A stretch of 64,000 nt of DNA. It comes from a virus. The notes below the pieces were generated by a model, which was given only the letters and a program-made list of their open reading frames with translations, had not been told where the DNA came from and ran no database searches. Positions 8,811 through 25,616 of the stretch are shown here, in pieces. Location of the stretch: positions 40,230 to 104,229 of IMG/VR virus record IMGVR_UViG_2716884398_000001; one strand, given 5' to 3'. The stretch's first letter is position 1. The number at the start of each line of letters is the position of its first letter. The position numbers and the translations under genes are program-made.

Positions 8811-9768
8811 CTCGAATTAGTCGAAGCCCCTCCAAAATATCCTCCTTAGGTAAATCAGTATGGGCAGCATCAATATAATCTTCTAAAATCACTTCATTCA
8901 AGGTAAACAGGTCTCGCTTAGGTTTGTAATCAGAAAGCATCTCTTCATCGAAAGCAGGTTTGAACTTAAACTCTACAGAAGCAACATCTAGCCCATCTGT
9001 GACTGGTTGTGTTTCTCCAGAGGATAGGTTAACCCGTAAAAGAGTATAGTAATCAGGATTATTGATATCATCTAGACAAAACTCTATTTCAGACTTATCT
9101 ACAACAAGATACCTAGGCCCAAAAGTTACCTCATGGTACTTTGTTTCGCCATCCTCTATAGTTGCGTAATAGTTTACTTTCCGACTTTCTCCAAAGTTAG
9201 TACTATACGGAGTTCCTAAGATTGTTACTAATTCTGATTGTTTGAATCTATGAATATGCCCCAAATAAGTGCGGTTCCTAAAAGTAGCAAGAGTAATCCC
9301 GAAATCAGCATCACCAACGGAGTTAAGGCAACCGTCGTAACCAAAATGCCCAAAGACGCTATGATCTTTTGGGACAGTGAGTAGAATGTTTTTAATCCTG
9401 TCTTGATCTTCGTAGTGTGGGATGTAGGTTCGTTTTTTATCATAATCATGGGTAGTCTGTGTAACAACTTGTACATTGTCTGATTCGAATAGGGATAATA
9501 TTGTTAACCCATCATCGGATCTATTATCACTATCATGATTCCCTCGAATCAAAACCATAGGACAATGCAAACTTATGGTTTTGATTATATCGTGGAGCGC
9601 GGAGAGGACCACTGGTTGGGGTCGCCTAACCATTACGAGGTCTCCCATTATTATAACCTCGTCAGGTTTTTCCTTCTCGAATATTTTTAAAATACATTCT
9701 TTCTGTGCGTCCAGTAACCCTACAGGCTTATGTGTTAAATGTAAATCAGTCAGTAATAATGTTTTCAA
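8800..9768 (-). CDS. SbcD/Mre11-like nuclease (T4 gp47-like)
   Basis: TDLH, GDL, GNHD, GH and GHIH phosphoesterase motifs; start is TTG 9768 (GAGG upstream) or ATG 9786. Confidence 0.9.
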   Translation of the reverse strand: MKTLLLTDLHLTHKPVGLLDAQKECILKIFEKEKPDEVIIMGDLVMVRRPQPVVLSALHDIIKTISLHCPMVLIRGNHDSDNRSDDGLTILSLFESDNVQVVTQTTHDYDKKRTYIPHYEDQDRIKNILLTVPKDHSVFGHFGYDGCLNSVGDADFGITLATFRNRTYLGHIHRFKQSELVTILGTPYSTNFGESRKVNYYATIEDGETKYHEVTFGPRYLVVDKSEIEFCLDDINNPDYYTLLRVNLSSGETQPVTDGLDVASVEFKFKPAFDEEMLSDYKPKRDLFTLNEVILEDYIDAAHTDLPKEDILEGLRLIRDEH

Positions 9769-10831
9769 ACTCAACCTCTTTTCCATCGCCAAAGCTAGTT
9801 CCCACTTCAACATCTATATTTAGGGGTACGGCAAACTCGATACCGAATAGCTTCTTAATAGTCGGATAATTAACCAACTCATCATGTATGATTGAAAGAA
9901 CAATATCCAACTCATCTTTGGGACACACTACCTCCACACTATCATGAACAGTTGCAACAGGTTTAGCTTTTAAATTATTCTCCTTAAACCTCCTAGCAAC
10001 ACCTAATAAACCACAAAGAAGAATGTCAGACGCTGTACTTTGGATAGTAAAGTTTAGGCCCTGCCTTAGGGCTCTGTTGACAACCGACCTGTCACGGGAG
10101 TAAACATCGGGTAAGTTTCTTCTCCTACCAAAGATAGAATATGCGTAGCCATTTTCCCGTATAAATTCATTTACATGGTCCATGTATCTAAAAACTCCAG
10201 GGTAGACCCTTTGATAGTTCTTAATTATCTTCTCCGCTCTATCCATAGGTATGGACATTGTTTCAGCTAAATTGAACGCGCCTCCTCCATAAACAATTAA
10301 GAAGGAAACAGTCTTTGCAATCTGTCGCTCCCGTTTCGAAATATCATCCTTCCCGAACAGTAGCTTTGCCGTGTATGTATGCAGGTCTGCGCCAGAATTG
10401 AATGCATGCTGCATACTTTTCTCTTTAGCCACATGAGCAAGAACTCGCAACTCCATGGCAGCATAATCTACAGTTACAAAATGGCAGTCATGGCTTGCGG
10501 TGAACATGCTTCGAATGTTTGTATCAGTATCACGGGGAAGAGTATGGAAAGAAACACCCATAGGCTTCTGAGCATTATACGCAGCACAAGATAGCCTACC
10601 CGTTGCAGTGCCATCAAGTCTGTAGTCTACATAGACCTTGCTCCTTCCATTGTAATCAATGGCTTTCTTCGTACCTAAGATATAAGTCTTCTGTAGTTTC
10701 TGAATCTTTCTAAGACTTAATAGGTCAGAAATAAATTTTGAAGCAGACCGAAGATCCTCAGTTGATTTATCCTTGATGACCCTCTTACTGATCTTCTTTC
10801 CTTCTTCTCTGTATTGCCACTTTGAACTCAT
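9746..10831 (-). CDS. DNA polymerase family A, C-terminal polymerase fragment (part 3 of 3)
   Basis: RKIQKLQKTY, GTATGRLS, motif A DYAAMELRVLAH, motif B RQIAKTVSFLIVYG, GRRR, NFTIQSTASD and motif C VHDS. Confidence 0.93.
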   Translation of the reverse strand: MSSKWQYREEGKKISKRVIKDKSTEDLRSASKFISDLLSLRKIQKLQKTYILGTKKAIDYNGRSKVYVDYRLDGTATGRLSCAAYNAQKPMGVSFHTLPRDTDTNIRSMFTASHDCHFVTVDYAAMELRVLAHVAKEKSMQHAFNSGADLHTYTAKLLFGKDDISKRERQIAKTVSFLIVYGGGAFNLAETMSIPMDRAEKIIKNYQRVYPGVFRYMDHVNEFIRENGYAYSIFGRRRNLPDVYSRDRSVVNRALRQGLNFTIQSTASDILLCGLLGVARRFKENNLKAKPVATVHDSVEVVCPKDELDIVLSIIHDELVNYPTIKKLFGIEFAVPLNIDVEVGTSFGDGKEVEFENIITD

Positions 10832-11307
10832 GATCTTCTACTTAATTCAGAGTTAATTTGTTCGAGTAATAGCTTAAGGGTTGGAGCAGAGACTGAAGGT
10901 TTTCCACTCCCAGTCTTGTCAGGAGGGTAAAGCTCAAAACCCCCCTCTCGGGTATAAAATATTTCAGTTAAATCATTATTAGATGCAAGGTTGTCTGTGT
11001 TTACCACCTGTGAATAAGAATATAAATCGTCCTCTTGGTTCACAATAAGGTTAGACAACTCCCTATCTAATTCCTTTAGCTTTGCTTCGCTAACCTGCAA
11101 CCCCTCGTACTCCATGTCAGAAAAAACATCTAACGCTTCGGGCAAAATTTGCTCAACGAAAGTTAAGCACCCATTTTCCTCTAACTTGTTTGACACGATA
11201 TCGAAAAGTTTCAAAGTAAAATAGGCATCAGCCGCATTGCCCTCGCAGCAATCTGCCAAAGACATCGAAGACCAATCGAAAGTTTTAGGGTTTGTTACGG
11301 TTAGCAT
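10828..11307 (-). CDS. DNA polymerase family A, middle fragment (ExoIII helix plus start of thumb; part 2 of 3)
   Basis: NAADAYFTLKLF (ExoIII-like), DMEYEGLQV (ME.xG), NLASNNDL (NL.S..QL) and TGSGKPSVS (thumb ST motif). Confidence 0.85.
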   Translation of the reverse strand: MLTVTNPKTFDWSSMSLADCCEGNAADAYFTLKLFDIVSNKLEENGCLTFVEQILPEALDVFSDMEYEGLQVSEAKLKELDRELSNLIVNQEDDLYSYSQVVNTDNLASNNDLTEIFYTREGGFELYPPDKTGSGKPSVSAPTLKLLLEQINSELSRRS

Positions 11308-11313
11308 GGCTAC

Positions 11314-11319
11314 ATATTA
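11314..11319 (-). promoter_or_regulatory. Candidate -10 (TAATAT) 6 nt before the ATG of polymerase part 2 (leaderless geometry)
   Basis: Minus strand reads TAATAT-GTAGCC-ATG with no SD. Confidence 0.4.
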
Positions 11320-11351
11320 CAGGGGCAAGAGCCCAATTATAGGTTGAGATT

Positions 11352-11780
11352 ATGATTAAATTATCCGAAAGATTAAGCCCTATCCAGCAACAAAGGTCTA
11401 GAACAAAAATTCAAACAGCTTTAGCAAGGCGTGGAAATATAGATAGAGGGCATGGTATTGCACCTGTTACTCAACGAACAGCTAAAAGAGAATTGCAAAG
11501 AAAAGCATCTAGACAAGGTTCAATTCAAAGAGTCGCGTCACAGCAAAAAAAATACGGACAGCAAATTGCGTCAAGAAGTTTAGGCATTACCTCATACAAT
11601 AAACTTTTTGAGATGATGGTAGCTGATAATCCAAAAAAAGAAACTCGCGCAGTACAACGAGCAAGACTCCGTAATAAAGAAGCAGGAAGCATGTTAACCA
11701 GACCTAACCAAAGAAGATTAACAATGTTAAAAGCAGCTTTAAAAAATTTGTTATTTTCTAAAGACTCTCCAACTCCGTAG
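11352..11780 (+). CDS. Basic, Arg/Gln-rich hypothetical protein inserted antisense between polymerase parts 1 and 2
   Basis: 142 aa ORF filling the gap; no homing-endonuclease motif; contains LSE and LFE motifs. Confidence 0.65.
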   Translation: MIKLSERLSPIQQQRSRTKIQTALARRGNIDRGHGIAPVTQRTAKRELQRKASRQGSIQRVASQQKKYGQQIASRSLGITSYNKLFEMMVADNPKKETRAVQRARLRNKEAGSMLTRPNQRRLTMLKAALKNLLFSKDSPTP

Positions 11781-12771
11781 GAAAGTATAACTTCACCAAA
11801 TCCATCAAGCTCTTAGGTAGGTTCTCATCCAAGAAGTGATGCATAATCTTAGTATCCCACACATTCTTAGTGTAAATTCCGTAATTAATCAGGAATTTTA
11901 GATCAAACTTAGCATTGTGAAATACCTTCTTGTTCTTTGGGTTCTCTAGTATGGCTCTGAGATTTCTCCACATCTTCTCATAGTGGGACTCCCCCTTCCT
12001 GAATGGTGAGTCCTTATGGTCGCAAGGGATTACCCAGTTCGTCTCTCTGGATGAGATGGCTATTGTTTGGATGCTATCTTTAAGGAAGTTAAGACCAGTA
12101 GTTTCTATGTCCATTGCCAAAGTCTCTTCAGTATCCTTAAGATCATATGCCAGCTTAATTACTTCCTGAATGTCAGTTAGGACTTTGTATTGGAGCTTCC
12201 CTTCATGTTTCTTTTCGAGGACATACTTTTCATACGCATTCCTAATGTCGGTTTCGAAGAGAATCCTATGCCGAGGTTCTTTAACCACAGAATAAGGATG
12301 AAAGATAGGAACAACAACACAAGAATGTCCTTCATCAGTTGTATAATCATAAGATCTTCCCCTTTTATCAGTGATGCCACTTTTTTTAATTAGCATCTTC
12401 ATTGCAAGGTTTCCACAGGTAAATACTAATATAGGCTTTACCCTCTGTATCGTTAAGTCTAAGTGCTGTCTACAGAGCTTCATGTTATCTGGAGACATAT
12501 CAGCCTCCTTCACAGAAGGGCACTTAACAGACGCAGAAAAAGAAGCATCATGATCAAAGCAATCACTAATTAACTCCTTCTCCTGCTTAGAAAAGGCCAT
12601 CGACTTCCCGAACCTGTGGTAAAAAGAATCAGATAAAAACAAAACATCGTTTCTATCCAACGAATCATAATCTGTGATACTATAATTCGGCTTTTCTTTA
12701 TCTAAAATCGTGCAACCAGCGCATAAATCGTTGGTATTAGTAGAGTTATATAAACTATAGAGATTACGCAT
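11758..12771 (-). CDS. DNA polymerase family A, N-terminal fragment: UDG-like domain plus 3'-5' exonuclease ExoI/II (part 1 of 3)
   Basis: UDG family-4-like CAGC..SVKC..KLCRQHL..VFTCGNLA..PIFHPY, then MDIETTG (ExoI), FHNAKFD (ExoII), WDTKIMHHFLDEN and SLMDLV. Confidence 0.87.
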   Translation of the reverse strand: MRNLYSLYNSTNTNDLCAGCTILDKEKPNYSITDYDSLDRNDVLFLSDSFYHRFGKSMAFSKQEKELISDCFDHDASFSASVKCPSVKEADMSPDNMKLCRQHLDLTIQRVKPILVFTCGNLAMKMLIKKSGITDKRGRSYDYTTDEGHSCVVVPIFHPYSVVKEPRHRILFETDIRNAYEKYVLEKKHEGKLQYKVLTDIQEVIKLAYDLKDTEETLAMDIETTGLNFLKDSIQTIAISSRETNWVIPCDHKDSPFRKGESHYEKMWRNLRAILENPKNKKVFHNAKFDLKFLINYGIYTKNVWDTKIMHHFLDENLPKSLMDLVKLYFPTELESL

Positions 12772-12788
12772 ACTATGATATAGTAATG
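12769..12788. promoter_or_regulatory. Palindromic 14-nt divergent intergenic region, candidate bidirectional leaderless promoter
   Basis: CAT-ACTATGATATAGTA-ATG. TACTAT/ATAGTA form an inverted repeat; TATGAT lies 6 nt before the + ATG and TACTAT 8 nt before the - ATG. Confidence 0.55.
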
Positions 12789-13130
12789 AAAACCCATTAT
12801 ATAGACAACAAACGCTTCGAAGAGCTAATTAAAGCTTATCAGGAAGACCCTGGCGAAAGTGAAGATGAACTATTTGCTATGTTCGATATCCTTATCGGAA
12901 ACATAATTAATTCATTTTCATTTAAGCTGGACTTCGATGATGCGAAGCAGGAATGTTTTCTAATAATATTAAAAACATTAAAAAACTTCAAAAAAGAAAA
13001 CGGAAGTGCATTCAATTACTTCACAACTATTATACTAAACAATTTGAAGCTTTTGTACACAAAGGATAAAAAATATACAGAGAAGATCAACAATTACATT
13101 GATCTAAAAAAAGATCTACTCGATCCCTAA
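12786..13130 (+). CDS. Late sigma factor, T4 gp55-like (very short)
   Basis: HYIDNKRF N-terminus, DDAKQE and NF...SAFNYFTTII motifs typical of the gp55 family. Confidence 0.8.
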   Translation: MKTHYIDNKRFEELIKAYQEDPGESEDELFAMFDILIGNIINSFSFKLDFDDAKQECFLIILKTLKNFKKENGSAFNYFTTIILNNLKLLYTKDKKYTEKINNYIDLKKDLLDP

Positions 13131-13469
13131 AGTCTCATATATTTTCGGTAAGTAGTCTTCCGTATACACCCTATGCTTATCTATTTTTACAAGCTGGGGG
13201 ACTTTGTTTGTTTTGTATATAACAAAAGAGTGGGGCATATTGTAACTATCTACAATATACAAAGGGTACTTCCTTGATGAGTTAATTTCCTGTTTCTTTA
13301 GGGAATCAACGAGTTCGGTGCTGTAATCGTCCCATAAAGAAACGAATAGAATTCTAAGTTTCTTAGGCTCTTTCTTATGGGCCTTTAGAATTTTGTTAAG
13401 GTCATTTTCCTTTCTCAGGAATGTCAGGTAATAGTCTGACTTAATTTTCTTAGTCTTAGTTCTCATCAT
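13116..13469 (-). CDS. Thioredoxin-fold protein lacking CxxC
   Basis: ILFVSLWDDYS at the F..xWCxxC position, LYIVD strand and KVPQLV cis-Pro motif. Confidence 0.6.
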   Translation of the reverse strand: MMRTKTKKIKSDYYLTFLRKENDLNKILKAHKKEPKKLRILFVSLWDDYSTELVDSLKKQEINSSRKYPLYIVDSYNMPHSFVIYKTNKVPQLVKIDKHRVYTEDYLPKIYETLGIE

Positions 13470-13812
13470 TTTCATCTGCTTTTGCAGAATCAGCGACCAT
13501 TTCTTCAACAGAATCATAACCTGCATCTTCTCGCAGTGACTCTAAATCAATGTTATGTTCTTCCGCGTGTTTCTCTACAGCGTTCATTAACTTAGACTCC
13601 ATAGTTTCCAAACCCATTTTGAAGATACTTTTAAGGAAGTCTTCATCGGAAATTTCGTCAGGCTTTACAACCTCAGCGAAATTTTTAAACGCTTGAGCTT
13701 CTATCTGATTTAGTTTAATTTGTAGTTTCATTCGAGATCTCGTCCTCTCTTTTAATTTGATTGACCAATTGGATAAATTGATATCTATCGCTACTTCTTT
13801 TGTTTTATCCAT
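13456..13812 (-). CDS. Hypothetical protein
   Basis: ORF starting MDKTKEV with AGGA upstream; acidic tail. Confidence 0.7.
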   Translation of the reverse strand: MDKTKEVAIDINLSNWSIKLKERTRSRMKLQIKLNQIEAQAFKNFAEVVKPDEISDEDFLKSIFKMGLETMESKLMNAVEKHAEEHNIDLESLREDAGYDSVEEMVADSAKADENDEN

Positions 13813-13841: not shown

Positions 13842-14369
13842 ATGAAAGATAATTTTGATGTAGCAAAACTAACAAAAACTAAAAAACCTAAAAAGGTTAA
13901 CAGCAGGAATAAGGGGCATTCTTTTGAGCGAAAGATAGCAACAATGCTAAATAATAAATTCGACACAAAAGAGTTTAGCCGCTCTCCTGGCTCTGGTGCG
14001 TTTGCCACAACCCATAATATCCCAGATCACCTAAAAATCTATGGAGATTTAATAACTCCTAAAGATTTTAAATTCTGTATTGAATGTAAAAAAGGATATA
14101 ACAAAGAGAATATATATAGTCTATTTAATAAGAGATCAGAGCTATGGAAATTTATAGATCAATGCGAAAAAGATTCTAAACAATGTAACAAAGAGCCCTT
14201 AATAATATTTCAACAAGATAGGCAGAAAATATTAGCTATTGTACGCTCTAATACATTTAATATTGATATAAAAAAAATAGATCTAACTAGAAAGAGTAAT
14301 AAAGAATATAATAATTATTCTATGTATCTACTAGAAGATCTATTATTAAACGATGATATTTGGATCTAA
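13842..14369 (+). CDS. Holliday-junction resolvase-like PD-(D/E)xK nuclease
   Basis: VNSRNKGHSFERKIA, RSPGSGA, GDL and IECKK motifs; TATAAT 5 nt before the ATG. Confidence 0.8.
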   Translation: MKDNFDVAKLTKTKKPKKVNSRNKGHSFERKIATMLNNKFDTKEFSRSPGSGAFATTHNIPDHLKIYGDLITPKDFKFCIECKKGYNKENIYSLFNKRSELWKFIDQCEKDSKQCNKEPLIIFQQDRQKILAIVRSNTFNIDIKKIDLTRKSNKEYNNYSMYLLEDLLLNDDIWI

Positions 14370-17197
14370 TTCATAGTTACTTCTTTTTCAAGCTGTTCAA
14401 GAAGTAGTTTTTGTCCCATAATAAACTTATACATTAAAGACTCTTGCCCATCTGATACACCTGTCGCACCTACTACTTCATTTATCATAGCATATTCTTC
14501 AGCTAATGCCTTGCTAATCATTACCGCAGAACCTGTTTGATAGGTATCTTTTCTTGTTTTTCTTGTAGTTTTTAAAGAAAGTGATTGTCTAGTACCTTTT
14601 CTCGTAATCCTAAGTGAACTACCTACGCCTTCAAAGTCCCACTCGTCTGGGTTATATAATATGCCTCTAGTAGGACCATCTAAAGGAGCTTGGTGTGAAA
14701 CAACTAGTGTACTACCTGAATCTAAGTCTTTTACATTAGTAAAACCCCCACCGACTGCACCACCCAGCATTTGTATTGTGTATGCTGCGTTTGCTCTTGC
14801 GTTGATAGCATTTGCAGTAAGATTACCTTTCGAATCTCTTTCATTGCCATCCTGGTGGTATCTGGCAGTTGTAAGTAAGCGTGTCATTCTTTCACTAATA
14901 TATGCATGATTTTGTGGAGTCATAGGAAGCCAATGCCCTTTGTCATCTTTAAACAATCTAAGAACATTATCCTGCTGTCCTTCTAGATATGAGAATTGGT
15001 TTTTTAATTTATTGTATATAGTTTGAGCCCCTGTGTTACTCCACTCACCAGGAATTACCTTACCTTTTTTATCTACCTGAACACCATCAGCGCCAGGAAA
15101 CACAGTACTTAATGCTTCAACATCTGCGTCCAATTTATCTTGATACGCTACAACTCCAGCATAAGTAGGGGAGCCTTTAATAGGATTCCCTGTATCGTCC
15201 ATGGCATCTAAACCTAAACCTGTTCTTGTCTGCTGATGCATCTGGGGGTGAACAGTACCTCCTCCAGTATCTCTAACAACCGCAGACCGATCTTCCCAGC
15301 CATTATTTTCACCTGCTTTATAACCACCAAATCTTAGATAACTTTTTAGGCTAGATCCGATTGTATAGACAGGAGTGCTATCTGTTAAGGTTCGTCCTTC
15401 AGACTTATAAACAGACTCATAATGAGAGAGTATATTCTTTGCTTCTTTTCCTTGGGTTCTAAGTTCACCTATTGTAGTAGTTTCATACCCTAATGCAAGG
15501 TGATCACAGTCCGTTCCTCCTTGGGCTAAACATGCACTACGAAAATGTTCCACTTTAGCTTCAGCTACATCTGGATCTAAATACCCGTAGACATTATCAT
15601 CTGCATATCCTTGTCCAGTGTTTACCCCTACTGGCAGAATAAGATCTGGTTCTAAAGCTTCCAAGACTGGTAATTCTAATCGTGACAACGAAACAAAATA
15701 AGACTTTAAAAGCTCGTCATTCTCTGTCATCTTTTCCAATTCTTGAAGAGTTTCATATATTTTTTGACTTTCTGTGTCAGTAGAAACTTCTCCTGCTGCA
15801 ACTTTTTTTGCCCACTGCATCGCCGCTTTGAATTTAAAATCGTCTTCAAGTAATTTACCAGCAATATAATCTAAATGATCTTTTAATATTTTTCTTCTAT
15901 CTCTAGGGTTTTTTACATTCTGAATAAGCCCAGCTATATGAAGACTGGTTATAGCAACTTCATTAATTTTCCCCCTAAAATCGTTGAGTTCTTGAGGATC
16001 ATACTTAGCTTTAGGTACTTGTTGTATAGGCATACCACCACAATTATCCATTGCTCTTTCAGCAGCATAATCTAGCATAGGATTAGATTGTATAACCATG
16101 CCCTGCTCAGTCTCACCCCTTGCTAGAAATACAAAACTATTTCCTCGCTTTTTAACATAAGTAGACATCTTTCCACAGTCTTCAAATTCTTTATCACCTA
16201 ACGCTGCTCTGAATAAAAAGTTTACTGACTCTGCTGCACCCCGCATTAAAACTATATCATTCTCAGCTAAAACAACTGGTGTAACAACCAAGTCAGTTTC
16301 GCCAGTCTCATTCCCTTTATCGTCCAATACGGGGTCAGATGAAATGTCAATGCCCTCTGCTAGTGCAAATTTTCTTTCTAAACTTGCCCCTGCATTTCCT
16401 GTAATATAAGATTGCTCTGCTTGGGTTCCTCCTTCTGCTGCTCTAGAGCCACCAGTAGCCCAATGGTCTTCCCCTTCTGGATTCCGTAATCTATAGTCTT
16501 CAGCTAATTTTTTTCCGTGACCTACCCACTCTCTTATTTTATCCTCAAGACCATCAGGACCATCATCTCTAAAACCTCTATGTCTTTCGAAAGTTCCACC
16601 TGCTCTATCCCACGAAGCATTACGGTCTAGTTCTTGCCTAAGTTCCGCATTTCTTTTGTTTCTTGCTTCTTCTTCTTTTTCTTCTGGAGTCTTGGGTTTA
16701 TCTGGAGTAGTTTTTTTAGGGGCTGCTCCTTCGTGTCGTGCTGCTAAAGCGTTTCTATATCTTCTAAATATTTGAGAATTGCCTTCACCATATCGGTTAA
16801 TAATGGGACGATCTGATTTAACATCCCCAAATCCTCGATAATAAATAAAGGTTTCCCCTTGAGGTAATATAGCTGTAGGATCTCCTCCTGACTGAATAGT
16901 CTTAATAACTTTTGCTATTGTTCCTTGAGGTACACCATAACCTGTTTCAGAATTATCAGGGTTAGGAGCATTAGGAATATCAGTACCCACACTCATTTGT
17001 CCCTTGGGGTCTGAGGTCCCTAACTGCTTAATTAGTAGATCATCAATTTCTTTTGCCGCTTCGGGATTTTGTTTTTTTAAAGTTTCATAATCTCCTGTAG
17101 GAACTTGTCCCGCAGCAGTAACCTCGTCAAGAGTAATATTTAACTGTCGCTTCTTGAGCTTATCGTAACTTTCTAGTAATTGAGTAAAATAGTTCAT
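14366..17197 (-). CDS. Large hypothetical protein, possibly head-packaged with a divergent nuclease fold
   Basis: 943 aa; starts MNYFTQLLESY; spaced RGKINE...ADDNV...IGSSLKSY motifs. Confidence 0.7.
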   Translation of the reverse strand: MNYFTQLLESYDKLKKRQLNITLDEVTAAGQVPTGDYETLKKQNPEAAKEIDDLLIKQLGTSDPKGQMSVGTDIPNAPNPDNSETGYGVPQGTIAKVIKTIQSGGDPTAILPQGETFIYYRGFGDVKSDRPIINRYGEGNSQIFRRYRNALAARHEGAAPKKTTPDKPKTPEEKEEEARNKRNAELRQELDRNASWDRAGGTFERHRGFRDDGPDGLEDKIREWVGHGKKLAEDYRLRNPEGEDHWATGGSRAAEGGTQAEQSYITGNAGASLERKFALAEGIDISSDPVLDDKGNETGETDLVVTPVVLAENDIVLMRGAAESVNFLFRAALGDKEFEDCGKMSTYVKKRGNSFVFLARGETEQGMVIQSNPMLDYAAERAMDNCGGMPIQQVPKAKYDPQELNDFRGKINEVAITSLHIAGLIQNVKNPRDRRKILKDHLDYIAGKLLEDDFKFKAAMQWAKKVAAGEVSTDTESQKIYETLQELEKMTENDELLKSYFVSLSRLELPVLEALEPDLILPVGVNTGQGYADDNVYGYLDPDVAEAKVEHFRSACLAQGGTDCDHLALGYETTTIGELRTQGKEAKNILSHYESVYKSEGRTLTDSTPVYTIGSSLKSYLRFGGYKAGENNGWEDRSAVVRDTGGGTVHPQMHQQTRTGLGLDAMDDTGNPIKGSPTYAGVVAYQDKLDADVEALSTVFPGADGVQVDKKGKVIPGEWSNTGAQTIYNKLKNQFSYLEGQQDNVLRLFKDDKGHWLPMTPQNHAYISERMTRLLTTARYHQDGNERDSKGNLTANAINARANAAYTIQMLGGAVGGGFTNVKDLDSGSTLVVSHQAPLDGPTRGILYNPDEWDFEGVGSSLRITRKGTRQSLSLKTTRKTRKDTYQTGSAVMISKALAEEYAMINEVVGATGVSDGQESLMYKFIMGQKLLLEQLEKEVTMN

Positions 17198-17276: not shown

Positions 17277-17867
17277 TTAAGGGGTTGAAATATCCTCTCT
17301 ATGAATAATAAAGTCGTAGCGAAGTTTCATCTCTAAAGTGTGGAATTCGTTCTGAGAGTAGTTGTACTCTGCGGCAGTAAGCGATTTAGGCCAAGCACCA
17401 ATTAACTGAATGTAGTTATAGGGCTGCATGTCAGAAGAGAGTTGTACTAATTCAATATTAGTCTTAAAACGACCTGGAGTTTGTAGGAAGCTGCTTGTAA
17501 ACTCACCTGTTGTTGGATCCCAAATAGTTTGGAAGAACTTAAAGAGTCCAACATTAGCCTTAGTCTTAACAAGGTTATCAAAGGTAACGGTCATTTCCTC
17601 AGTACTTGGCTTTCCAGGGTAGTAAACTTGGTCGTTAACTCTGTGTACAGGAATATCCTCGACCTGAAGACCAATACCATTAACCTGCTTCGCTGCAAGA
17701 GTTAAGGGCTTCGAAAAAGAACCAATCTCAACTTCCTGTGGAGGGTGAAATGTTATTTCCCATTGATAAGCTCTGATCGAATCAATGTCCTGGGAAATAA
17801 CAGGCATGGTATTACCATCCGTGATGTCCCGATTTAAATTGTTTGCATAGTATCCTGTAAGTCCCAT
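17277..17867 (-). CDS. Tail tube protein (T4 gp19-like)
   Basis: RAYQWEITF, YYPGKP, TVTFD, LIGAWP and LRYD motifs; directly downstream of the sheath gene. Confidence 0.88.
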   Translation of the reverse strand: MGLTGYYANNLNRDITDGNTMPVISQDIDSIRAYQWEITFHPPQEVEIGSFSKPLTLAAKQVNGIGLQVEDIPVHRVNDQVYYPGKPSTEEMTVTFDNLVKTKANVGLFKFFQTIWDPTTGEFTSSFLQTPGRFKTNIELVQLSSDMQPYNYIQLIGAWPKSLTAAEYNYSQNEFHTLEMKLRYDFIIHREDISTP

Positions 17868-17881
17868 TAGTTTCTCCTATT

Positions 17882-19975
17882 CTAACTTAAGTTTGTAGAT
17901 TGGTTTGTAATATTGAGTTCAAAGACAATAACTTCAGCAGTCTTTGTTGGCTTAATAAGAACTTTACACCAAAGTTCATTTCTATCAACCCTAACAGGTG
18001 TGTTTGTAGTTTCATCACAAACAACCTTGAATTGATTAATTCCTCTTCTTCGTCTAATATCATCTAGGAAAGGATCAAGCGTAGCCTTTACCTTTTCCCA
18101 GGTGATCTCATCATTAGGCTCGAAAACAAATCTTTGAGTTGCATCTAAAATAACTCTCTTAACAACGAGCAAGAGTCTACGAACATTAATTCTGTCTAAT
18201 GCAGTGGGATCTCTCTGTGCTGTTCTTTGCCCGAAGATCGTAATCCCTCTCTGGGGGAAATTAACGATGGGGTTGATTGCATTACCGCCACTGTATAAGG
18301 AGTCTCTGTCTCCCTGATTGAGATCAACTTCAACCTCAGTGGGCTTAAGAAGTCTACCTCTAACAAAACCTGCGGGAGCGAACCATGGATCAGCAACACT
18401 ATCAGTGAAGCACATTTGCTTAATACCGTAGACACCTGGATCCATAAAGATATCCCTACCTAGGTAAGGGTTGAATACTTTTACAGCAGGATAATAAATA
18501 GCTGCGTAAGAGCTATTTATTGGGGAGGTTCTCATTAATTTACCGTTATGCCAATCAATAGCGTTTTGAGCATTACCAATTGCAAGAGGAGTACCTAAAA
18601 CAGCTATAAAATCGTTTGTTCTTTCTGCTAATGCTACTAACTCATTTTGAACAGCTTCGTCGGTGATGCCTGGGACAATAGCCATGGTGATTGGAACGCC
18701 TTCTACATCTAATGATTGCATACCTGTTTTAGGAAGAGCCGCAGCATTTCCTACTAAAGAACCAGTGGTGTTTTCAGAAGCTCCACTGTTACCACCAGCC
18801 ATTCCTACCCCACCATCAATAAATTTAGTAAATCGGGGTGTGATATCATCTGTACCATTAGCGTCTGCAACGCCATCACCTAGTAAAACATCAATTCTCT
18901 TAGTAAACAGAATTGGATTAGCATCAAGGGAGCCTCCATCTTCTTCCAAGTTGCCCCGAATAACTTCAGATGTAGTATCAGTATTACCAGTGTTGATTAT
19001 AGACTCAACAAAAGATTCTGTTCCTAGAGAAACCGTAAAGCTTTCTAATATAGAGCCATTCTCATAAACATACAATACTGATTGATCACCACCTAAGGAT
19101 TCAGTAGCGACTGCGTTACCTTTTACTGCACCGCCAACACCTACAACCTCATTGTAACCCGCTCCAGGCCAAAGTGATTCTGCTTTATATGCGAAAGATG
19201 CAGTTGAATAAGTCCAACCATTTGCGTTACCAGTGTCTGCCCAAGCAGGAGTTTCAGGATCGCTCCCCTCTTCAATCAGGGGATTACCTTCAGAGTCTAA
19301 TGCAACAAAAGCATTTGAGATAATATCATCAATATCCTTAGCAGCGGAGGAGTATGCAGTCGCAGTAATTGAAGCCGTTGCACCTGCTGCGAAGCCAACT
19401 AAAATACCGTTTTCTGAACCCATAAGGGAACCAGCATCATCGTCATCCCAAAAAACGCCAACCTTGTCAGTGCTAAGGGAACCCCCTATGGCCGCTCTTA
19501 AGGCTTGAGCATTAGTCTCGCCATTAGGCACAGGAACATGGAATGTTCTAGAGCCTTCTGGGAAACCAAAATCATTATTATTGTCACGGACAGATATTTC
19601 CACCCAAACACCCTCAGTAGCCTCAGTAAAAATATTTGAATTAACAGCTAAAGCTGGGCAAGCACCTAAGGATAAGCGACTAGAAGCTAATGCACTTTCT
19701 TCATCATCAATTGCACGAACAAACCATAGTTGATTCGTTCCGTTAGGACCCGCAAGAATCTCTAATGCACCTTGGAGTCCCTGACCTGGAAGATCGTCAC
19801 TAGGTTCACCAAATGTACTTACAAGTTGTGTTGGGCTGGTAATTAGAGTAGGCTTATGTGGCTCTCCTTTATCAGCAAACCCAACCACACCTACAATAGA
19901 TGGGTTAGTTGCTGGGGTGTATTCACTAATATCTTTCTCAATTACATAGACACCTGGACTTACAAAATTTGGCAT
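17882..19975 (-). CDS. Contractile tail sheath protein (T4 gp18-like)
   Basis: SPGVYVIEKD, PWFAPAGFVRG, INPIV, FGQRT, DRINVRRL and FVFEPND motifs. Confidence 0.96.
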   Translation of the reverse strand: MPNFVSPGVYVIEKDISEYTPATNPSIVGVVGFADKGEPHKPTLITSPTQLVSTFGEPSDDLPGQGLQGALEILAGPNGTNQLWFVRAIDDEESALASSRLSLGACPALAVNSNIFTEATEGVWVEISVRDNNNDFGFPEGSRTFHVPVPNGETNAQALRAAIGGSLSTDKVGVFWDDDDAGSLMGSENGILVGFAAGATASITATAYSSAAKDIDDIISNAFVALDSEGNPLIEEGSDPETPAWADTGNANGWTYSTASFAYKAESLWPGAGYNEVVGVGGAVKGNAVATESLGGDQSVLYVYENGSILESFTVSLGTESFVESIINTGNTDTTSEVIRGNLEEDGGSLDANPILFTKRIDVLLGDGVADANGTDDITPRFTKFIDGGVGMAGGNSGASENTTGSLVGNAAALPKTGMQSLDVEGVPITMAIVPGITDEAVQNELVALAERTNDFIAVLGTPLAIGNAQNAIDWHNGKLMRTSPINSSYAAIYYPAVKVFNPYLGRDIFMDPGVYGIKQMCFTDSVADPWFAPAGFVRGRLLKPTEVEVDLNQGDRDSLYSGGNAINPIVNFPQRGITIFGQRTAQRDPTALDRINVRRLLLVVKRVILDATQRFVFEPNDEITWEKVKATLDPFLDDIRRRRGINQFKVVCDETTNTPVRVDRNELWCKVLIKPTKTAEVIVFELNITNQSTNLS

Positions 19976-19984
19976 AATTATCTC

Positions 19985-20161
19985 CTAAGCATTTTTTAAA
20001 CGCAAAAGCTGCATTTTCTGCATATTCTTTACTTGTTCGGTAATATAGTAGGAAGGAACTACTATAGTCTCCTTAGGCTTTAACCATCTTGTGATATGAC
20101 CTTTAGGAGTGTTAATGTGGATCTCAAATCCTTGCAAACTATCATTGGTGATACTTTTCAT
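19985..20161 (-). CDS. 58-aa hypothetical protein absent from the ORF track (MKSITNDSLQGFEIHINTPKGHITRWLKPKETIVVPSYYITEQVKNMQKMQLLRLKNA)
   Basis: Translated by hand; GAGG SD and TAAATA box upstream; fills the gap before the sheath gene. Confidence 0.75.
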   Translation of the reverse strand: MKSITNDSLQGFEIHINTPKGHITRWLKPKETIVVPSYYITEQVKNMQKMQLLRLKNA

Positions 20162-20214
20162 AATAATTCCTCTATTATATTTACTATACCTTGTAACTAA
20201 GGTTGATTATTTTT

Positions 20215-20889
20215 TTAGGTTAAATGAACATCAACCCCTAATTCTTCTATTTTTCCAGTAGAAGTATATCTAAATTTTGGGCTAGGTATATATGTTTCTA
20301 CAGAAACAGTAAATGTCTTTCGAATAAGCCTGTCTTCTCTGTCCCCTGCGGTTACATCAGAGTTATTAGCCTCGTCGGTTAAGAATGCTTTCGTATCTTT
20401 ACTATAGGGAGTAATAAAGAACAAGCTAGGATTAAATTTAAGCCTCACTTGCTCTGCTAATTGATCCATATCTTCCATGTATTTGGTCCAAATACTAACA
20501 CCGTAGCTAATATTTACGGGCCTATCAACAAAGCTTATCACCCTCTCTGCTCTAGCTGTCTCATTATTGTAAAACTTACTAGCAATAATAATAGGCTTAT
20601 ATTTACGCCTAGTGGGGTCATCATCAATCTTAGTCTGCCCAACTGTAACTACAGGAAGAATAATATTATTCTCTTGATATAGTTTTGCGATTGTCCGCTC
20701 AGGGTTTGCGTGAAAGCATTTTACATCAGTAAAATTACCCTCAGCATCAATATACCCTAAGTTACCGAACTCATGAATAAGAGAACGCAAGGTTTCTTTA
20801 TAAACTTTTGCAGGTAAAGTGGACTTTTTAGTAGCTTCCATCAGATACCCACGAAGCTTTTCATTAGCTGATCTACCCTCAATCGCCAT
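20215..20889 (-). CDS. Tail completion/terminator protein (gp15-like)
   Basis: ILPVVTV, PVNISYGVSIWTKYMEDMDQLAEQV and FTVSVETYI; position between the neck and sheath genes. Confidence 0.75.
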   Translation of the reverse strand: MAIEGRSANEKLRGYLMEATKKSTLPAKVYKETLRSLIHEFGNLGYIDAEGNFTDVKCFHANPERTIAKLYQENNIILPVVTVGQTKIDDDPTRRKYKPIIIASKFYNNETARAERVISFVDRPVNISYGVSIWTKYMEDMDQLAEQVRLKFNPSLFFITPYSKDTKAFLTDEANNSDVTAGDREDRLIRKTFTVSVETYIPSPKFRYTSTGKIEELGVDVHLT

Positions 20890-21442
20890 GCATATACCTT
20901 CCTAGTTCATCAGTTGTGTGTAAGTTTGGTGTGTCCTGAACTTCTTCGTTAGCGCGAAGGAGTTTAGCAGAACATACGAGGTGATACACGCCATAAATTT
21001 CAAAGCTATCTTCTTGAACTTGGAAGATCTCGTACTTCTGCTCCTGGAATTTAGGTTTTATAACATCTCCAGGTAGGGGCATCCTGTTTAATCTCTCCTC
21101 AATATAGCTTTTATTAAATACAAACAACTGCTCATTAGTTAATTCGATTCCAAACTCTGAGAGGTTTTCCTCCAAAGCTTTAGGCTCATAATGACCATGA
21201 ACAACAATAGGTTCTGTAGCTATAGGCTTATTACGAGATTCTAGATATACATCATCATGATCTTCACTCTGATAATATTTGTAGTAATATAGCTCAGATC
21301 CTGAGATCTTAATTAGCTCATCATCAACAAGATTAAAAAGATTAATATCTGCGTTTTCTTGATCAAAAAAGTTAAGCATACTACTGCCTTCCCCTTCGGG
21401 GAGGGGTGGCATATTTGTAGTAACTTTAAAATTCTTAGGCAT
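20879..21442 (-). CDS. Neck/head-completion protein (gp14-like)
   Basis: DELIKISG.ELYYY, DDVYLE, LSEFGIE, PLPGDVI and YEIFQV motifs. Confidence 0.8.
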   Translation of the reverse strand: MPKNFKVTTNMPPLPEGEGSSMLNFFDQENADINLFNLVDDELIKISGSELYYYKYYQSEDHDDVYLESRNKPIATEPIVVHGHYEPKALEENLSEFGIELTNEQLFVFNKSYIEERLNRMPLPGDVIKPKFQEQKYEIFQVQEDSFEIYGVYHLVCSAKLLRANEEVQDTPNLHTTDELGRYMHGD

Positions 21443-22799
21443 TTCTCAATCTTCTTCTGAGCATCTCCCTTAGGGGACTTCCAGTACCTAGGTACTCAGT
21501 ATGTGCCCTGTCTATGTTGGTGTCGGGATGTTCGATCTCCCCTCTAGAGAGAGCATGAGGCATTGGTTTCTGTGTCCATTTCTTGCGTCTTGTTTGCTTA
21601 AATGTCTTCCTCGCTTGCTGTGCCCCACTAAGATTTCCAGATTTCCTTAACTGCAAGAGCTTTTCCAGATGTTTTTTTCTTAAAGCTATATTAGTTGGAT
21701 CCCTCTTCACAGGGTCTTGCGTATATCTTTTACCCGCAGGAAGTTCGAGAGGCGCATCCTTCAGATTTTTAACATCCCAACTCCACGGGCGTCGTGTTGT
21801 AGCAGGTAGGTCAGCGCCTCTTTCTATTTGGTTAGGATTGTAGTTAGATGGTTTATGCTCGATGGGCGTAGCATCTACTTTAAGAGGATCCTCTGGCACT
21901 AAGCTGGTTTCAGGTTTAACCTTAGGGTCTGTGGGTTTTCCTCTCCCTACTTTATACCATGGAACTCCTCCTTTACTAATAGGTCTACCTGTTCTAGATA
22001 TCCCTGGCTCTGTTGTGTATGGATAAGAGGGGTCCGTTCTATCTCCAGATGTCTTTCTATATTCTGGTTCCTCCTCACCCCTAGCCATGGCTCTAGCTCT
22101 TGCGATATCTCTAAATGCTTTCACTGCTTCAGGATCACCAGCCAATCTTTTAGCTTGAGCTTGCTGCCTTTCTCTCCTTTGGATCCTCTGTGAAGTTGTT
22201 TGGTTCATGTACTTTCCAGAGGTTCCAGTTTGCTGCTTTCCTGGCTGAAATCCGAACTCTGTCTTCTTTGTTACTTTACCAGTATCTGGATCCACTTCTG
22301 TTCTTTGTACATCTCCATATCTTGAAGTAAATCCAGGAAGTGGCTTTCCTTGTCTCAGTTCGTACTCTCTAGCAAACTCATCTCTTTTAGCAGCAGTAGG
22401 AGCGTTCATCTTCCATTGATCAGAAAAGGTGGGTGCCCCTTTCCCCAATCTTCTATCTGCCATTCTTCTTTGTACGATATCCCAAGCTTTATCTCCTACT
22501 ACTCTTTCTCCAGTGTTAGGATCAATCGCACCACCAACCATAGCATCACGCTTGGCTTGAGCTTTCATTGCGGCTCCCATATAGCCTTTCCTATAACCGA
22601 AACGATAATCATCTGCTGTTCCGATAACATCTCTTTTGATACGCTTTGCTGTTGCTCCTAATGAGCCTCTAAGCTTCCCCGCCTTGGTTTTTAGTGTAGA
22701 GGCTAATAATTCATCAATTCGATCATCAAATTCACTCTTAATATTTTCTTTAAGAGCTTGTCTTTCTGTAAGAATATCGTGTAATTTTTTCTTATCCAT
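21435..22799 (-). CDS. Basic low-complexity hypothetical protein between the neck genes (candidate internal head protein)
   Basis: 454 aa; rich in R, K, G and P; ILTE, LKE and LRE motifs near the termini. Confidence 0.7.
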   Translation of the reverse strand: MDKKKLHDILTERQALKENIKSEFDDRIDELLASTLKTKAGKLRGSLGATAKRIKRDVIGTADDYRFGYRKGYMGAAMKAQAKRDAMVGGAIDPNTGERVVGDKAWDIVQRRMADRRLGKGAPTFSDQWKMNAPTAAKRDEFAREYELRQGKPLPGFTSRYGDVQRTEVDPDTGKVTKKTEFGFQPGKQQTGTSGKYMNQTTSQRIQRRERQQAQAKRLAGDPEAVKAFRDIARARAMARGEEEPEYRKTSGDRTDPSYPYTTEPGISRTGRPISKGGVPWYKVGRGKPTDPKVKPETSLVPEDPLKVDATPIEHKPSNYNPNQIERGADLPATTRRPWSWDVKNLKDAPLELPAGKRYTQDPVKRDPTNIALRKKHLEKLLQLRKSGNLSGAQQARKTFKQTRRKKWTQKPMPHALSRGEIEHPDTNIDRAHTEYLGTGSPLREMLRRRLRNA

Positions 22800-22800
22800 A

Positions 22801-23694
22801 TTAGTATGTAGTGAACACGGGTGGTTCTTCGATCTGTGAAGTAAGTTCTTCCATAAGAGCTTGCTTTTCTGTGGCTGATTCTTGTGCTAACTGTTGAGCA
22901 TTAAGTGAGACACCCCCTCCAGGAGAAGGAACTTGTCCATATTTACCCCTAACCTGTGATAATACACCTTTAGCTACCGCTAACGCATACCTTTGAATCC
23001 AATTAACATAAGCAGGGTGTATAGTATTAGAATCTAATGCTCTATACTCAATAATAACAGGCTCTGGAGTCATCACAGGAGCAGGATATAACTGCACATA
23101 GCGGTTATTTAAAATATTATATGAGCCTTCCTGGCTTAAAATCTTTCGTGTACTTTCGAGCATACTTTGGAGGAGGTAGAAATCACCTACCCCAAAGTTT
23201 TCAAACAAGAAATTCTCTTGAAAATACTTAATAAAAAAGTCAAATTCAAGCGTTCCTGCTTGCGATTGGATACTAAGCAAAGATTTTTTGTACACAATAT
23301 AGCTTAAATTATCAATCATATATGTAGGAAGTTCATATACATTCTGACCAGCAGAAGCTTCAAATACTGCATACTGCATAGTCCATAATGGAGCATGATA
23401 GTTTAGCTTTGTAACAGCTTCATCTATGCTCGCTTTTAATTGATAATGTGTAAGTTCGACACGAACAATAGGATGACCTAACATCCCCAAAACATAGTCT
23501 TTAACTAGTTCATCAAAAGGGGAAAACTCTACTCCATCTGATAGTTTAGTTTTATTCAGTTTTGAAGGATCAATATCTCCTTCTGGGGTATAGTTAAGGA
23601 GGTCATAGCCATAATCTTTAGAACTATTTCTATTACCAAAACTTGTCCCGTAACCATTAAGCCTCGGTCTTGGAAATGTCTTGTTTGTCGCCAT
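22801..23694 (-). CDS. Neck protein (gp13-like)
   Basis: LGHPIVRVEL, WIQRYALAVAKGVL...RGKY and PGGGVSLNA motifs. Confidence 0.85.
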   Translation of the reverse strand: MATNKTFPRPRLNGYGTSFGNRNSSKDYGYDLLNYTPEGDIDPSKLNKTKLSDGVEFSPFDELVKDYVLGMLGHPIVRVELTHYQLKASIDEAVTKLNYHAPLWTMQYAVFEASAGQNVYELPTYMIDNLSYIVYKKSLLSIQSQAGTLEFDFFIKYFQENFLFENFGVGDFYLLQSMLESTRKILSQEGSYNILNNRYVQLYPAPVMTPEPVIIEYRALDSNTIHPAYVNWIQRYALAVAKGVLSQVRGKYGQVPSPGGGVSLNAQQLAQESATEKQALMEELTSQIEEPPVFTTY

Positions 23695-23866
23695 CTATTT
23701 CTACCTTCTTTTTGGGTCTACCCCGTTTCTTTTCCTCAATTAAAGTTAACTGTGGATAATCTAGCTTTTCTTTTGTTTTTATTATTTGTTTAGGGCGAAT
23801 TTCAAGTATCTCACCACCAACATATAATAACATCCTGAATCGGCAGGAGCTTTTGTATGTATACAT
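23657..23866 (-). CDS. Small basic hypothetical protein with an AT-hook-like KKRGRPKK
   Basis: 69 aa ORF after the capsid terminator, with its own TATATA box. Confidence 0.6.
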   Translation of the reverse strand: MYTYKSSCRFRMLLYVGGEILEIRPKQIIKTKEKLDYPQLTLIEEKKRGRPKKKVEIDGDKQDISKTEA

Positions 23867-23885
23867 TATTCTACTTTATATAGGC

Positions 23886-23923
23886 AAAGAAAAAGGGCCA
23901 AGGAAGTAATTTTCCCTGGCCCC
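23886..23923 (-). terminator. Rho-independent terminator after the major capsid gene
   Basis: GGGCCAGGGAA-loop-TTCCTTGGCCC followed by TTTTTCTTT. Confidence 0.82.
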
Positions 23924-23969
23924 TCTATTTCTTTATGATTTATTATCTAAATCATTCAACCATTATGGC

Positions 23970-25616
23970 TTATGCCATCCCGCCTTTCACCTTAGCGAAT
24001 GGGGTGAAGAGGAAGTTAGCGGTAGGCCCGATAAGTCTCAAGATTCTATAGTATCTTGAGGCTGGGGTTACTGCTGCCTTACCATAGCGGGTGAGGATCC
24101 CCTTCCTGGGCTGGAAGTCGGTGGGATCAACGATGGTGGGTAGAGTCTGGAGTGGGATGTATGGAGAATAGACAAAGCCTGAATCCATAGCATTGGCACC
24201 CTTATAACCCATCATAAGCTCATCTTCTGGGTACATAGGATCGACATAAAGATCAAACTGACCAGCAAGTTTACCCTTGTACTCAATGTTACTACCACCA
24301 ACATTGGTGGGACCGTCAATCTTATCAACACCACCCTCAAGCTTTGCAGCAGAGTGAAGCATTGAAGCGACTAGAGGTGAGCAGACAATCCAGTTACCAG
24401 GACCACGCATCGTAGTCTTGTAGATGTCCTGACTCATAAGATTAAGCATTGCAAGCAAGTTTGCATAGACATGACCGACATGCTGAGGTGCAAAATCAAG
24501 AGCAGAAGTTGAGAAATCATATAAGAATACATTTTCGTTAGTTCCAGCAGTGTCTGTGCCTGTAGTGTAATCATACAAGAAGTCAGCAGCAGGATCATTA
24601 GTTGCCATGTCAGGCTGAAGAACAAAGTTGTTCGAATTTGCCTGATCAAGGTTAGCCTTCTTCCACTTAGATCCCTTGGCTTCAAGTTCACCATCAACAT
24701 CGTATGAAAGCATACGAAGATCTTCGATAAGCTCACGGTCGATCTCAAGGCGAAGTTCCTTACCAAGCATGTCAGTAAGCTCCCGCTCAAGGTCAAGGTT
24801 GTGATAAGCCTTAAGGTCTTGAGAAGCCTCAAGAGTCCAAAGGGCTCTCATCTTACGAGTACGGGCTGCAACAGGCTGCTGCTCGATGTGGAAGACCATT
24901 TCTGGAATACCAGAACCAGCCAAACGCTCACCAGCAGAGACATTGAATCCCATCATTCCGTGAGGACCAGAGCGAGTCGATCCAGTATCGTCACGACCGA
25001 GATCACCAACGGCAGGCCAAGAGGCAATCTTACCACCCATGGTAGCAGAAGCATAAGGACCATTAGCACCAGCACTCATGAAGAGAGCAGATGTAGTAAG
25101 ATCTCTACCTGCAAGAGCAGAAGGTGACCAGCCATTGTTGGTTACAACAATGTTACTATTACCTAATGCACTATCGGGGTCATGAGTTTGATCCATATCA
25201 TAGTTTGCACCCCCAAAGATTGGGTTAGTGGTCAAGCCTCTGTATGTGAGTTGATACTTGTTGTAGATCTGCTGCTCAGAACCACCATCAACACGACTGT
25301 TACCAATGTAGAAGATCTGTGAAACAGGTCCCTGCATTGGCTGAACGCCAACAATATTGTTAGCAATTAGTTCAGGATAAACGCGACGAACAATAGGAAA
25401 AGCAAACTTCTGGAAAGTACCTAAGCGGCCTACGGTAGTTTGTGTACCACCAGTATCGACTGCTTCCTGAAGTTTTTCAGAAATAATCGACTTAGCTTGG
25501 TTCTCAAGAAGTTGAGCGGTTACTCTTCTTCCGTAGTCATCGCCTATCCCTTCAAGAACTGGTTCCCATTTTTCTACGACTTCATTCTTAATTCCGTCTG
25601 TGGGCATAATATCCAT
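23970..25616 (-). CDS. Major capsid protein (T4 gp23-like)
   Basis: KWEPVLEG, LLENQ, PIVRRVYP, GVQPMQGP, RTRKMRALWTLEASQDLKAYH, EIDRE, YSPYIPL and PRKGILTRY motifs. Confidence 0.97.
   Translation of the reverse strand: MDIMPTDGIKNEVVEKWEPVLEGIGDDYGRRVTAQLLENQAKSIISEKLQEAVDTGGTQTTVGRLGTFQKFAFPIVRRVYPELIANNIVGVQPMQGPVSQIFYIGNSRVDGGSEQQIYNKYQLTYRGLTTNPIFGGANYDMDQTHDPDSALGNSNIVVTNNGWSPSALAGRDLTTSALFMSAGANGPYASATMGGKIASWPAVGDLGRDDTGSTRSGPHGMMGFNVSAGERLAGSGIPEMVFHIEQQPVAARTRKMRALWTLEASQDLKAYHNLDLERELTDMLGKELRLEIDRELIEDLRMLSYDVDGELEAKGSKWKKANLDQANSNNFVLQPDMATNDPAADFLYDYTTGTDTAGTNENVFLYDFSTSALDFAPQHVGHVYANLLAMLNLMSQDIYKTTMRGPGNWIVCSPLVASMLHSAAKLEGGVDKIDGPTNVGGSNIEYKGKLAGQFDLYVDPMYPEDELMMGYKGANAMDSGFVYSPYIPLQTLPTIVDPTDFQPRKGILTRYGKAAVTPASRYYRILRLIGPTANFLFTPFAKVKGGMA

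Follow-up and report, generated by a model that had tools for sequence, protein, structure and literature searches.

Family-A DNA polymerases (PolAs) are the textbook single-chain polymerases. Among the phage enzymes, those with a uracil-DNA glycosylase (UDG)-like domain (UDG-PolAs) are single chains in the account of Czernecki et al., 2023 (PMC10201439), which also reports the separation of exonuclease and polymerase in T7-like cyanophages as the first split among PolAs and reads the split of its "clade B" (S-SBP1, S-TIP37 and P-SSP7) as a gene fission with the complex retained. The same cyanophage split is mentioned in PMC12695635 and PMC1079782, and for OM43 phages PMC10580990 describes a two-part polymerase with a small open reading frame (ORF) between the parts. 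Single-chain SP15-like UDG-PolAs have been solved (Missoury et al., 2026; PMC13697223), and the word "split" does not figure in that paper. Here we describe a stretch of 64,000 nucleotides (the window; positions 40,230 to 104,229 of IMG/VR record IMGVR_UViG_2716884398_000001) from an uncultured marine phage, whose sole recognisable DNA polymerase is a PolA encoded on three separate genes, called p1, p2 and p3 in the order of the enzyme's domains. We suggest that the three ORFs are likely to be separately translated pieces of one UDG-exonuclease-family-A replicase, assembled from three subunits without covalent linkage. A literature search, with subscription journals and supplements outside its scope, did not turn up any PolA that is cut within the exonuclease domain or divided into three; the one natural split of a PolA that it brought to light passes cleanly between domains. 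This conserved three-gene UDG-exonuclease-PolA is new among split PolAs in the positions of its cuts and in the number of its pieces.

Cultured relatives are distant. In a phage collection whose search may leave out records nearly identical to the window, a nucleotide query with positions 9700-12800 gave no match and protein searches found no close cultured relative; the best cultured-phage matches of p1 are SP-10, SBSphiC and YungSlug. A preliminary description of this DNA had called the enzyme "SPO1-type", which is loose as a label for a UDG-PolA with nearest cultured relatives that are only about 32% identical.

Colinearity with single-chain PolA

The three genes match consecutive segments of a continuous polymerase. 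The PHROG family phrog_17 ("DNA polymerase") is matched in order by p1 (profile positions 481-785), p2 (802-926) and p3 (931-1239), and profile-profile alignment (hhalign) of the pieces against an alignment anchored on Escherichia coli Pol I placed residues 195-337 of p1 on residues 330-476 of that enzyme (probability 98.0), residues 5-150 of p2 on 479-620 (probability 96.9) and p3 on approximately 624-926 (probability 100). In Pfam, p1 matches UDG (25.4 bits, cut-off 24.3) and positions 3-131 of the 173 of DNA_pol_A_exo1 (a genome search with PF01612 likewise covers p1 only at positions 3-135 of 173), p3 matches DNA_pol_A (PF00476) over positions 52-380 of 381 (E 3.3e-79), and p2 has no match. 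Profile searches of the PDB returned a UDG (4zbx) and the Klenow fragment for p1, weak matches to Bst and mycobacterial Pol I for p2, and the Bst Pol I large fragment for p3 (chain positions 267-578, E 2.4e-44). The colinear order of PolA motifs over three ORFs, as first proposed from the sequence and the ORF list, is thus borne out by Pfam, by phrog_17 and by the profile alignments.

The first cut falls inside the exonuclease domain, between ExoII and ExoIII (approximately E. coli Pol I residues 476-479), and the second in the thumb, between the PSxSxxxLxxL and xLxLRKxxKLxxTY helices (approximately residues 620-624). The alignment to E. coli Pol I puts ExoI and ExoII on p1 and the ExoIII aspartate on p2. 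The proofreading site is thus genuinely shared by p1 and p2, and the thumb by p2 and p3. Asp221 and Glu223 of p1 align to E. coli D355 and E357 and Asp290 to D424; these residues and Asn286 are invariant in 50 sequences. On p2, Asp27 aligns to D501 and Gly23 occupies the position of Y497, with Gly23, Asn24, Ala25 and Asp27 invariant in 56 sequences. All four carboxylates of a DEDDy site (p1 D221, E223 and D290; p2 D27) are therefore present and invariant, with the tyrosine replaced by Gly23. The polymerase motifs are together on p3: motif A is DYAAMEL (D122), motif B is RQIAKTVSFLIVY (R169, K173, F177 and Y181) and motif C is VHDS (H296 and D297); D122, R169, K173, F177, Y181 and D297 align to E. 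coli D705, R754, K758, F762, Y766 and D882, and are invariant in 11 sequences. The motif placement given in the preliminary description accordingly stands for ExoI and ExoII, for the ExoIII aspartate and for motifs A, B and C, but the canonical ExoIII tyrosine is absent.

Ahead of the exonuclease, p1 carries a family-4 UDG fold (profile match to 4zbx over residues 42-187, E 1.5e-13). An AlphaFold2 model of p1 has a predicted local distance difference test score (pLDDT) of 80.8, and its last ~30 residues are of low confidence, which fits a fold that is missing its closing helix. The best Foldseek match of this model is the single-chain UDG-PolA of phage phiLo (9qhs, E 9.5e-10, 331 columns); taken by halves, it matches family-4 UDG (4zbx, and 4zby with a TMt of 0.61) and the exonuclease domain of the Klenow fragment (1kfs, root-mean-square deviation 2.5 over 141 columns). 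Within the UDG-like domain (12295-12723, minus strand), C17, C20, C84, C100 and C119 and the His158-Pro159 of motif B are invariant in 50 sequences, and an Fe-S cluster may have been retained in p1. The position of UDG motif A reads LSDS in p1, as opposed to GEAPG in the family-4 enzyme 4zbx, and because of this divergence UDG activity of p1 is uncertain. Folded alone, p2 gave a pLDDT of 46, too poor for a fold search and without bearing on binding.

Table 1. Positions in the window of the polymerase genes, their cuts and associated elements.
Feature	Coordinates	Strand	Description
p1	11758-12771	minus	ORF of 337 aa; family-4 UDG-like domain (~residues 42-187) and N-terminal two thirds of a DnaQ-type 3'-5' exonuclease fold
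p2	10828-11307	minus	ORF of 159 aa, bridging piece; ExoIII helix, exonuclease-polymerase linker, start of the polymerase domain, first thumb helices (PSVSAPTLKLLLEQ)
p3	9746-10831	minus	ORF of 361 aa; remaining thumb, palm and fingers; motifs A, B and C
First cut	11308-11757		Spacer of 450 bp, p1 stop to p2 start
Second cut	10828-10831	minus	ATGA overlap of p2 stop (TGA) and p3 start (ATG)
ExoI, AMDIETTG	12094-12117	minus	p1 residues 219-226; D221, E223
ExoII, HNAKFD	11902-11919	minus	p1 residues 285-290; N286, D290
ExoIII equivalent, CCEGNAAD	11227-11250	minus	p2 residues 20-27; D27
orfX	11352-11780	plus	142 aa, very basic, antisense to the polymerase genes, inside the first cut
AT-rich box, TGTAATATGTAGCC	11308-11321	minus	Abuts the p2 ATG; family consensus approximately CTATWATATATAGNN

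Conservation and probable history of the two cuts

A profile search of IMG/VR with p2 yielded 126 relatives, from which 80 loci with 56 distinct p2 proteins were kept, 76 of them covering both p1 and p2. Both cuts are retained in 80 of 80 loci, and in every one the p2 stop overlaps the p3 start; the 12 loci found first all have separate ORFs for p2 and p3 (12/12), and the eight of them that reach p1 have it as a separate ORF too. One of the IMG/VR contigs, of 129,906 bp, is a near-twin of the window's contig. Among 1.84 billion representative proteins, p2 matches 134, of which 119 are no longer than 181 aa; most of the matching representatives align from 1-158 to 1-158, down to approximately 27-30% identity. 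The relatives of p3 at 70-99% identity fall into more than 120 clusters, every one of 353-374 aa, and among the 8000 candidates scored the best chains of at least 633 aa are only 31-37% identical and are cellular Pol I enzymes. Both cuts are common to a large clade of uncultured marine phages.

Start and stop are conserved for every piece, and all three pieces are under strong purifying selection. Compared with a close relative (locus L001) for which synonymous sites are unsaturated, the ratio of non-synonymous to synonymous change (pN/pS) is 0.09 for p1, 0.04 for p2 and 0.01 for p3; the medians across more distant loci, at which synonymous sites are saturated, are 0.20, 0.20 and 0.16. The protein ends flanking the two cuts rank with the most highly conserved parts of the pieces: p1 closes with ...PKSLMDLVKLYFPTELESL (in the window ...LYFPTELESL, followed by TAG), p2 opens with MLT..NP..FDW and ends with PSVSAPTLK.LLEQINEE, and p3 starts with MS.KW..R.EGK. 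Contigs from the seawater metagenomes of other studies span the p2/p3 junction without gaps (10675-10935), and independent seawater contigs do the same for the start of p2 (11182-11423 and 11234-11386) and the stop of p1 (11490-11806). Other metagenome contigs, whose loose ends lie at 11758 and 11765, diverge directly past the p1 stop.

The contig that carries the window is of phage size (130,604 bp) and belongs to an assembly of 1.36 Mb and 47 contigs that is ~71% complete. In the whole assembly, this 130.6-kb contig included, there is no match to a PolB family, and the PolA described here is the only one. The only other PolA-type exonuclease domain lies at the end of another contig (C18:20069-20554) and probably belongs to a gene of the host that the contig end has cut.

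Less divided forms of the enzyme also exist. In eight representatives of 323-563 aa, including a truncated one, the N-terminus of p2 (MLT or MLS...) continues unbroken through p3, and six further representatives are single chains containing the exonuclease, p2 and p3 parts, among them a UDG-PolA of 809 aa. For two of the two-piece forms the genomic context was available. Both have a p1-like gene (331-332 aa) upstream; in one form the two genes overlap by TAATG, and in the other 268 bp lie between them. The region homologous to p3 was used for a quick tree of 40 rows, comprising the window, 26 hand-picked from the 56 distinct p3 sequences, seven two-piece forms and six single-chain forms; the truncated two-piece form P0342 was left out, and long branches were flagged. 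All split forms group in one clade (Shimodaira-Hasegawa-like approximate likelihood ratio test 99), and the three-piece forms fall to one side of a branch supported at 91, which is below the tool's star threshold. Because two-gene forms of the type p1 / p2+p3 exist, cut 1 is placed before cut 2, and we consider that the fissions were probably sequential, the second occurring later within the clade founded by the first. The tree fits this order and does not amount to proof of it.

The extra helical sequence flanking cut 2, which the preliminary description took for an added docking interface, may be older than the cut: P0337, in which p2 and p3 are uncut, already has a similarly long insert at the corresponding spot of the thumb, so that the added helical sequence could predate the fission. 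An origin of the cut-2 termini by duplication was rejected, as the p2 and p3 profiles share no similarity (hhalign probability 0.2).

The first cut and the proposed assembly of three pieces

Among the 76 loci, the first cut is closed in 40 by a TAATG or TGATG overlap and holds 274-2403 bp in the other 36. The contents of this slot vary and include basic antisense ORFs, lipoprotein-like antisense ORFs, a GT2 glycosyltransferase (locus L037) and, on the same strand, a 91-aa membrane protein that is TAATG-coupled at each end; apart from the glycosyltransferase, the other slot ORFs have no Pfam or PHROG family. Nor is the gap between p1 and p2 of the window empty, as it holds, on the opposite strand, orfX, whose 3' end runs 23 bp into the stop region of p1. 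Since orfX is the sole open frame of the six in the spacer and has a pN/pS of 0.34 relative to L001 (43 of 426 nucleotides differ), it is probably a real gene; it matches no Pfam or PHROG family and has no paralogue in the assembly. A terminator-like hairpin with a T-run is also found in the spacer (11643-11662, minus strand), ~100 nucleotides downstream of the p1 stop and antisense to orfX, in a region where the count of such sites is at chance level.

In all 32 loci where opposite-strand cargo adjoins p2, an AT-rich box (approximately CTATWATATATAGNN) ends directly at the p2 ATG; loci in which p1 abuts p2 lack this box. We infer that the box is a candidate promoter, possibly bidirectional, for a leaderless or near-leaderless p2-p3 mRNA, for the divergent cargo gene, or for both. 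The box is not enriched across the window (six matches against 3.7 expected, and 37 against 45.6 in a second search); it is local to the slot, and a general phage promoter motif was rejected on these grounds. The candidate -10 boxes noted earlier for p1 and p2 found no support, as a scan of 9600-13200 with the sigma-70 consensus found eight sites where 9.6 were expected by chance.

These observations can be combined into a scheme for the enzyme. The DnaQ fold of p1 lacks its closing part, and p2 begins with exactly that part. In the scheme, p2 would be the keystone: its N-terminal helix would complete the fold of p1 and bring D27 as the fourth active-site carboxylate beside D221, E223 and D290, while the thumb would be formed by its C-terminal helices together with the N-terminus of p3. 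A stop codon that overlaps the next start codon is typical of translational coupling, and the ATGA overlap of p2 and p3, which is present as originally noted, suggests this function here, with termination and reinitiation predicted to provide p2 and p3 in equal amounts. The ancestral coupling of p1 to p2 was probably through a TAATG overlap; in the window it would have been broken by the antisense cargo gene, and p2-p3 would then be expressed from the conserved AT-rich box at the p2 ATG. A bolder form of the proposal combines an obligate three-subunit replicase held together by its 159-aa keystone with a first cut that serves as an insertion slot equipped with a promoter box, bidirectional or leaderless, of its own, so that the dose of the UDG and proofreading functions could be set separately from that of the polymerase core and fidelity would become tunable. 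We put this forward as speculation that is, taken as a whole, rather unlikely.

Several observations weigh against an intact, stoichiometric three-subunit replicase and should be borne in mind. The ExoIII tyrosine is replaced by glycine (GNAxD) in all split lineages, two-piece and three-piece alike, which may alter or weaken the chemistry of proofreading; since the fused UDG-PolA relative P0364 retains YNAWD at this place, loss of the tyrosine goes with the first cut. Motif C is HDS, not HDE, as it also is in P0364. Cargo stands between p1 and p2 in the window and in 36 of the 76 loci, so that equal dosage of the two is not enforced. Finally, the view of the AT-rich box as a promoter of a leaderless mRNA is drawn from sequence, and the consensus scan stayed at chance level.

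The alternatives differ in how much of this they leave in place. That the gene is simply a broken one, a decaying pseudogene, or that its cuts are artefacts of assembly or sequencing, would agree with single-chain PolA being the rule and with the incompleteness of the 47-contig assembly. The same cuts, however, recur in all 80 independent IMG/VR loci and in hundreds of protein clusters, the pieces are under purifying selection (pN/pS 0.01-0.09 against L001), contigs of independent seawater metagenomes bridge the junctions, and the phage contig has no second polymerase. Decay and misassembly are ruled out, the probability left to them being negligible, and the earlier judgement that this is not a decayed gene is strongly supported, with breakpoints conserved under purifying selection and assembly error excluded by the gap-free bridging contigs. 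The three ORFs could instead be rejoined into one chain by a group I or group II intron, by a split intein or by programmed ribosomal frameshifting, an idea suggested by the change of frame at both junctions. Polymerase genes of SPO1-like phages are known to carry introns, and in records of the Bacillus phages Phireball and Nemo (Herelleviridae) pieces of PolA flank HNH endonuclease genes, while HonestAbe, of a related genus, has a continuous PolA gene of 1033 aa. In the window, a search of 9000-13500 against Rfam at E values up to 1 found no intron or other family, only a chance U6 match outside the spacer, and an intron in the 450-bp spacer was rejected on this basis. More generally, there is no room for an intron, because p1 and p2 abut in 40 of the 76 loci and p2 and p3 always overlap. 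Pfam finds no intein or Hint domain in the pieces, in agreement with the lack of intein motifs remarked on from the start, and only a few residues at the termini extend beyond the homology in the E. coli Pol I alignment. The frame of p3 relative to p2 is +1 in 54 loci (8-nt overlap; start codon GTG in 52 and ATG in two) and -1 in 26 (24 ATGA and two TAATG), and as this offset differs between subclades a conserved slippery site is lacking. Both p2 and p3 have conserved start codons. Rejoining thus appears highly improbable.

A third alternative leaves the chains separate and parts their functions: p2 and p3 would form a polymerase without stable proofreading, and p1 would act as a free-standing UDG-like or nuclease accessory that binds them transiently or not at all. 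The uncoupling of p1 from p2 by cargo in nearly half of the loci that cover both genes, the window among them, would agree with this, as would the loss of the ExoIII tyrosine in the split lineages and the divergence of UDG motif A. Yet the exonuclease fold of p1 is incomplete, with the Pfam exo1 match ending at position 131-135 of 173 and a C-terminus of low model confidence, and at the N-terminus of p2 some 45 residues, D27 among them, are invariant or almost invariant and would have no role without p1. Furthermore, the last 19 residues of p1 do not vary among the first seven sequences, and a TAATG or TGATG overlap couples p1 to p2 in the loci where the slot is closed. We regard such a division of labour as unlikely, and favour the non-covalent assembly of p1, p2 and p3 into one replicase.

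Genome context and comparison with known polymerases

On the other side of p1, 14 bp from its ATG, a divergent ORF of 114 aa (12786-13130, plus strand) weakly matches Sigma70_r2 (22 bits, a score under the cut-off), also matches a sigma factor in PHROGs, and is syntenic in the relatives examined. It is followed by an ORF of 175 aa (13842-14369, plus strand) that matches Pfam PDDEXK_15, a putative PDDEXK endonuclease of phages (E 7e-30), and which PHROGs label a RusA-like resolvase, and by an ORF of 943 aa without PHROG or Pfam family (14366-17197, minus strand), which separates the replication genes from a T4-like structural block. This block (17277-27602, minus strand) encodes tail tube, sheath, head-tail adaptor, major head protein and prohead protease, its major head protein being ~30% identical to proteins of T4-like cyanophages. 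The window contains no tRNA genes.

A natural enzyme, abundant and strongly conserved, that is cut through both the exonuclease active site and the thumb would reveal where PolA tolerates fission, would supply split points ready for use in engineered polymerases that are split or assembled conditionally, and would illustrate the passage from one chain to a multi-subunit replicase in two evolutionary steps. Surveys of viral PolA that demand one chain would miss or miscount this widespread marine clade, because p2 has no Pfam match and p1 and p3 look truncated.

Divided polymerases are also found outside family A: gp43 of some T4-related phages is a split family-B polymerase, and Methanothermobacter reportedly has a split PolB (Kelman et al., 1999, as cited in PMC1079782). 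In these enzymes separately encoded chains reconstitute the activity, but they belong to another family and consist of two pieces, not three. The intron- or homing-endonuclease-interrupted PolA genes of Herelleviridae resemble the locus described here in that homology to the polymerase is spread over several annotated ORFs. There, however, the pieces are separated by mobile elements and presumably spliced, whereas in the present locus an intron was not found, and many relatives have pieces that abut or overlap.

With the single-chain UDG-PolAs (the N4-like cluster 17, the SPO1, SP-10 and SP-15 type, YerA41 and phiLo), the marine enzyme shares the order of UDG-like domain, 3'-5' exonuclease and polymerase. 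Those enzymes are single polypeptides of approximately 800-1120 aa, whereas here the same order is distributed over three genes, the ExoIII tyrosine has become glycine and UDG motif A has diverged. The nearest parallel in gene arrangement is the split PolA of S-SBP1-like cyanophages (PMC10201439, PMC12695635 and PMC1079782): in both, a family-A replicase is encoded on adjacent, separately initiated genes without intron or frameshift. The cyanophage enzyme, as described there, has one cut at the boundary of exonuclease and polymerase, is encoded by two genes, occurs in podoviruses and has no UDG domain. In contrast, the UDG-PolA described here is cut twice inside folded units, the DnaQ fold and the thumb, and lies on three genes of a contig with T4-like structural genes, where the first of the two cuts doubles as a cargo slot.

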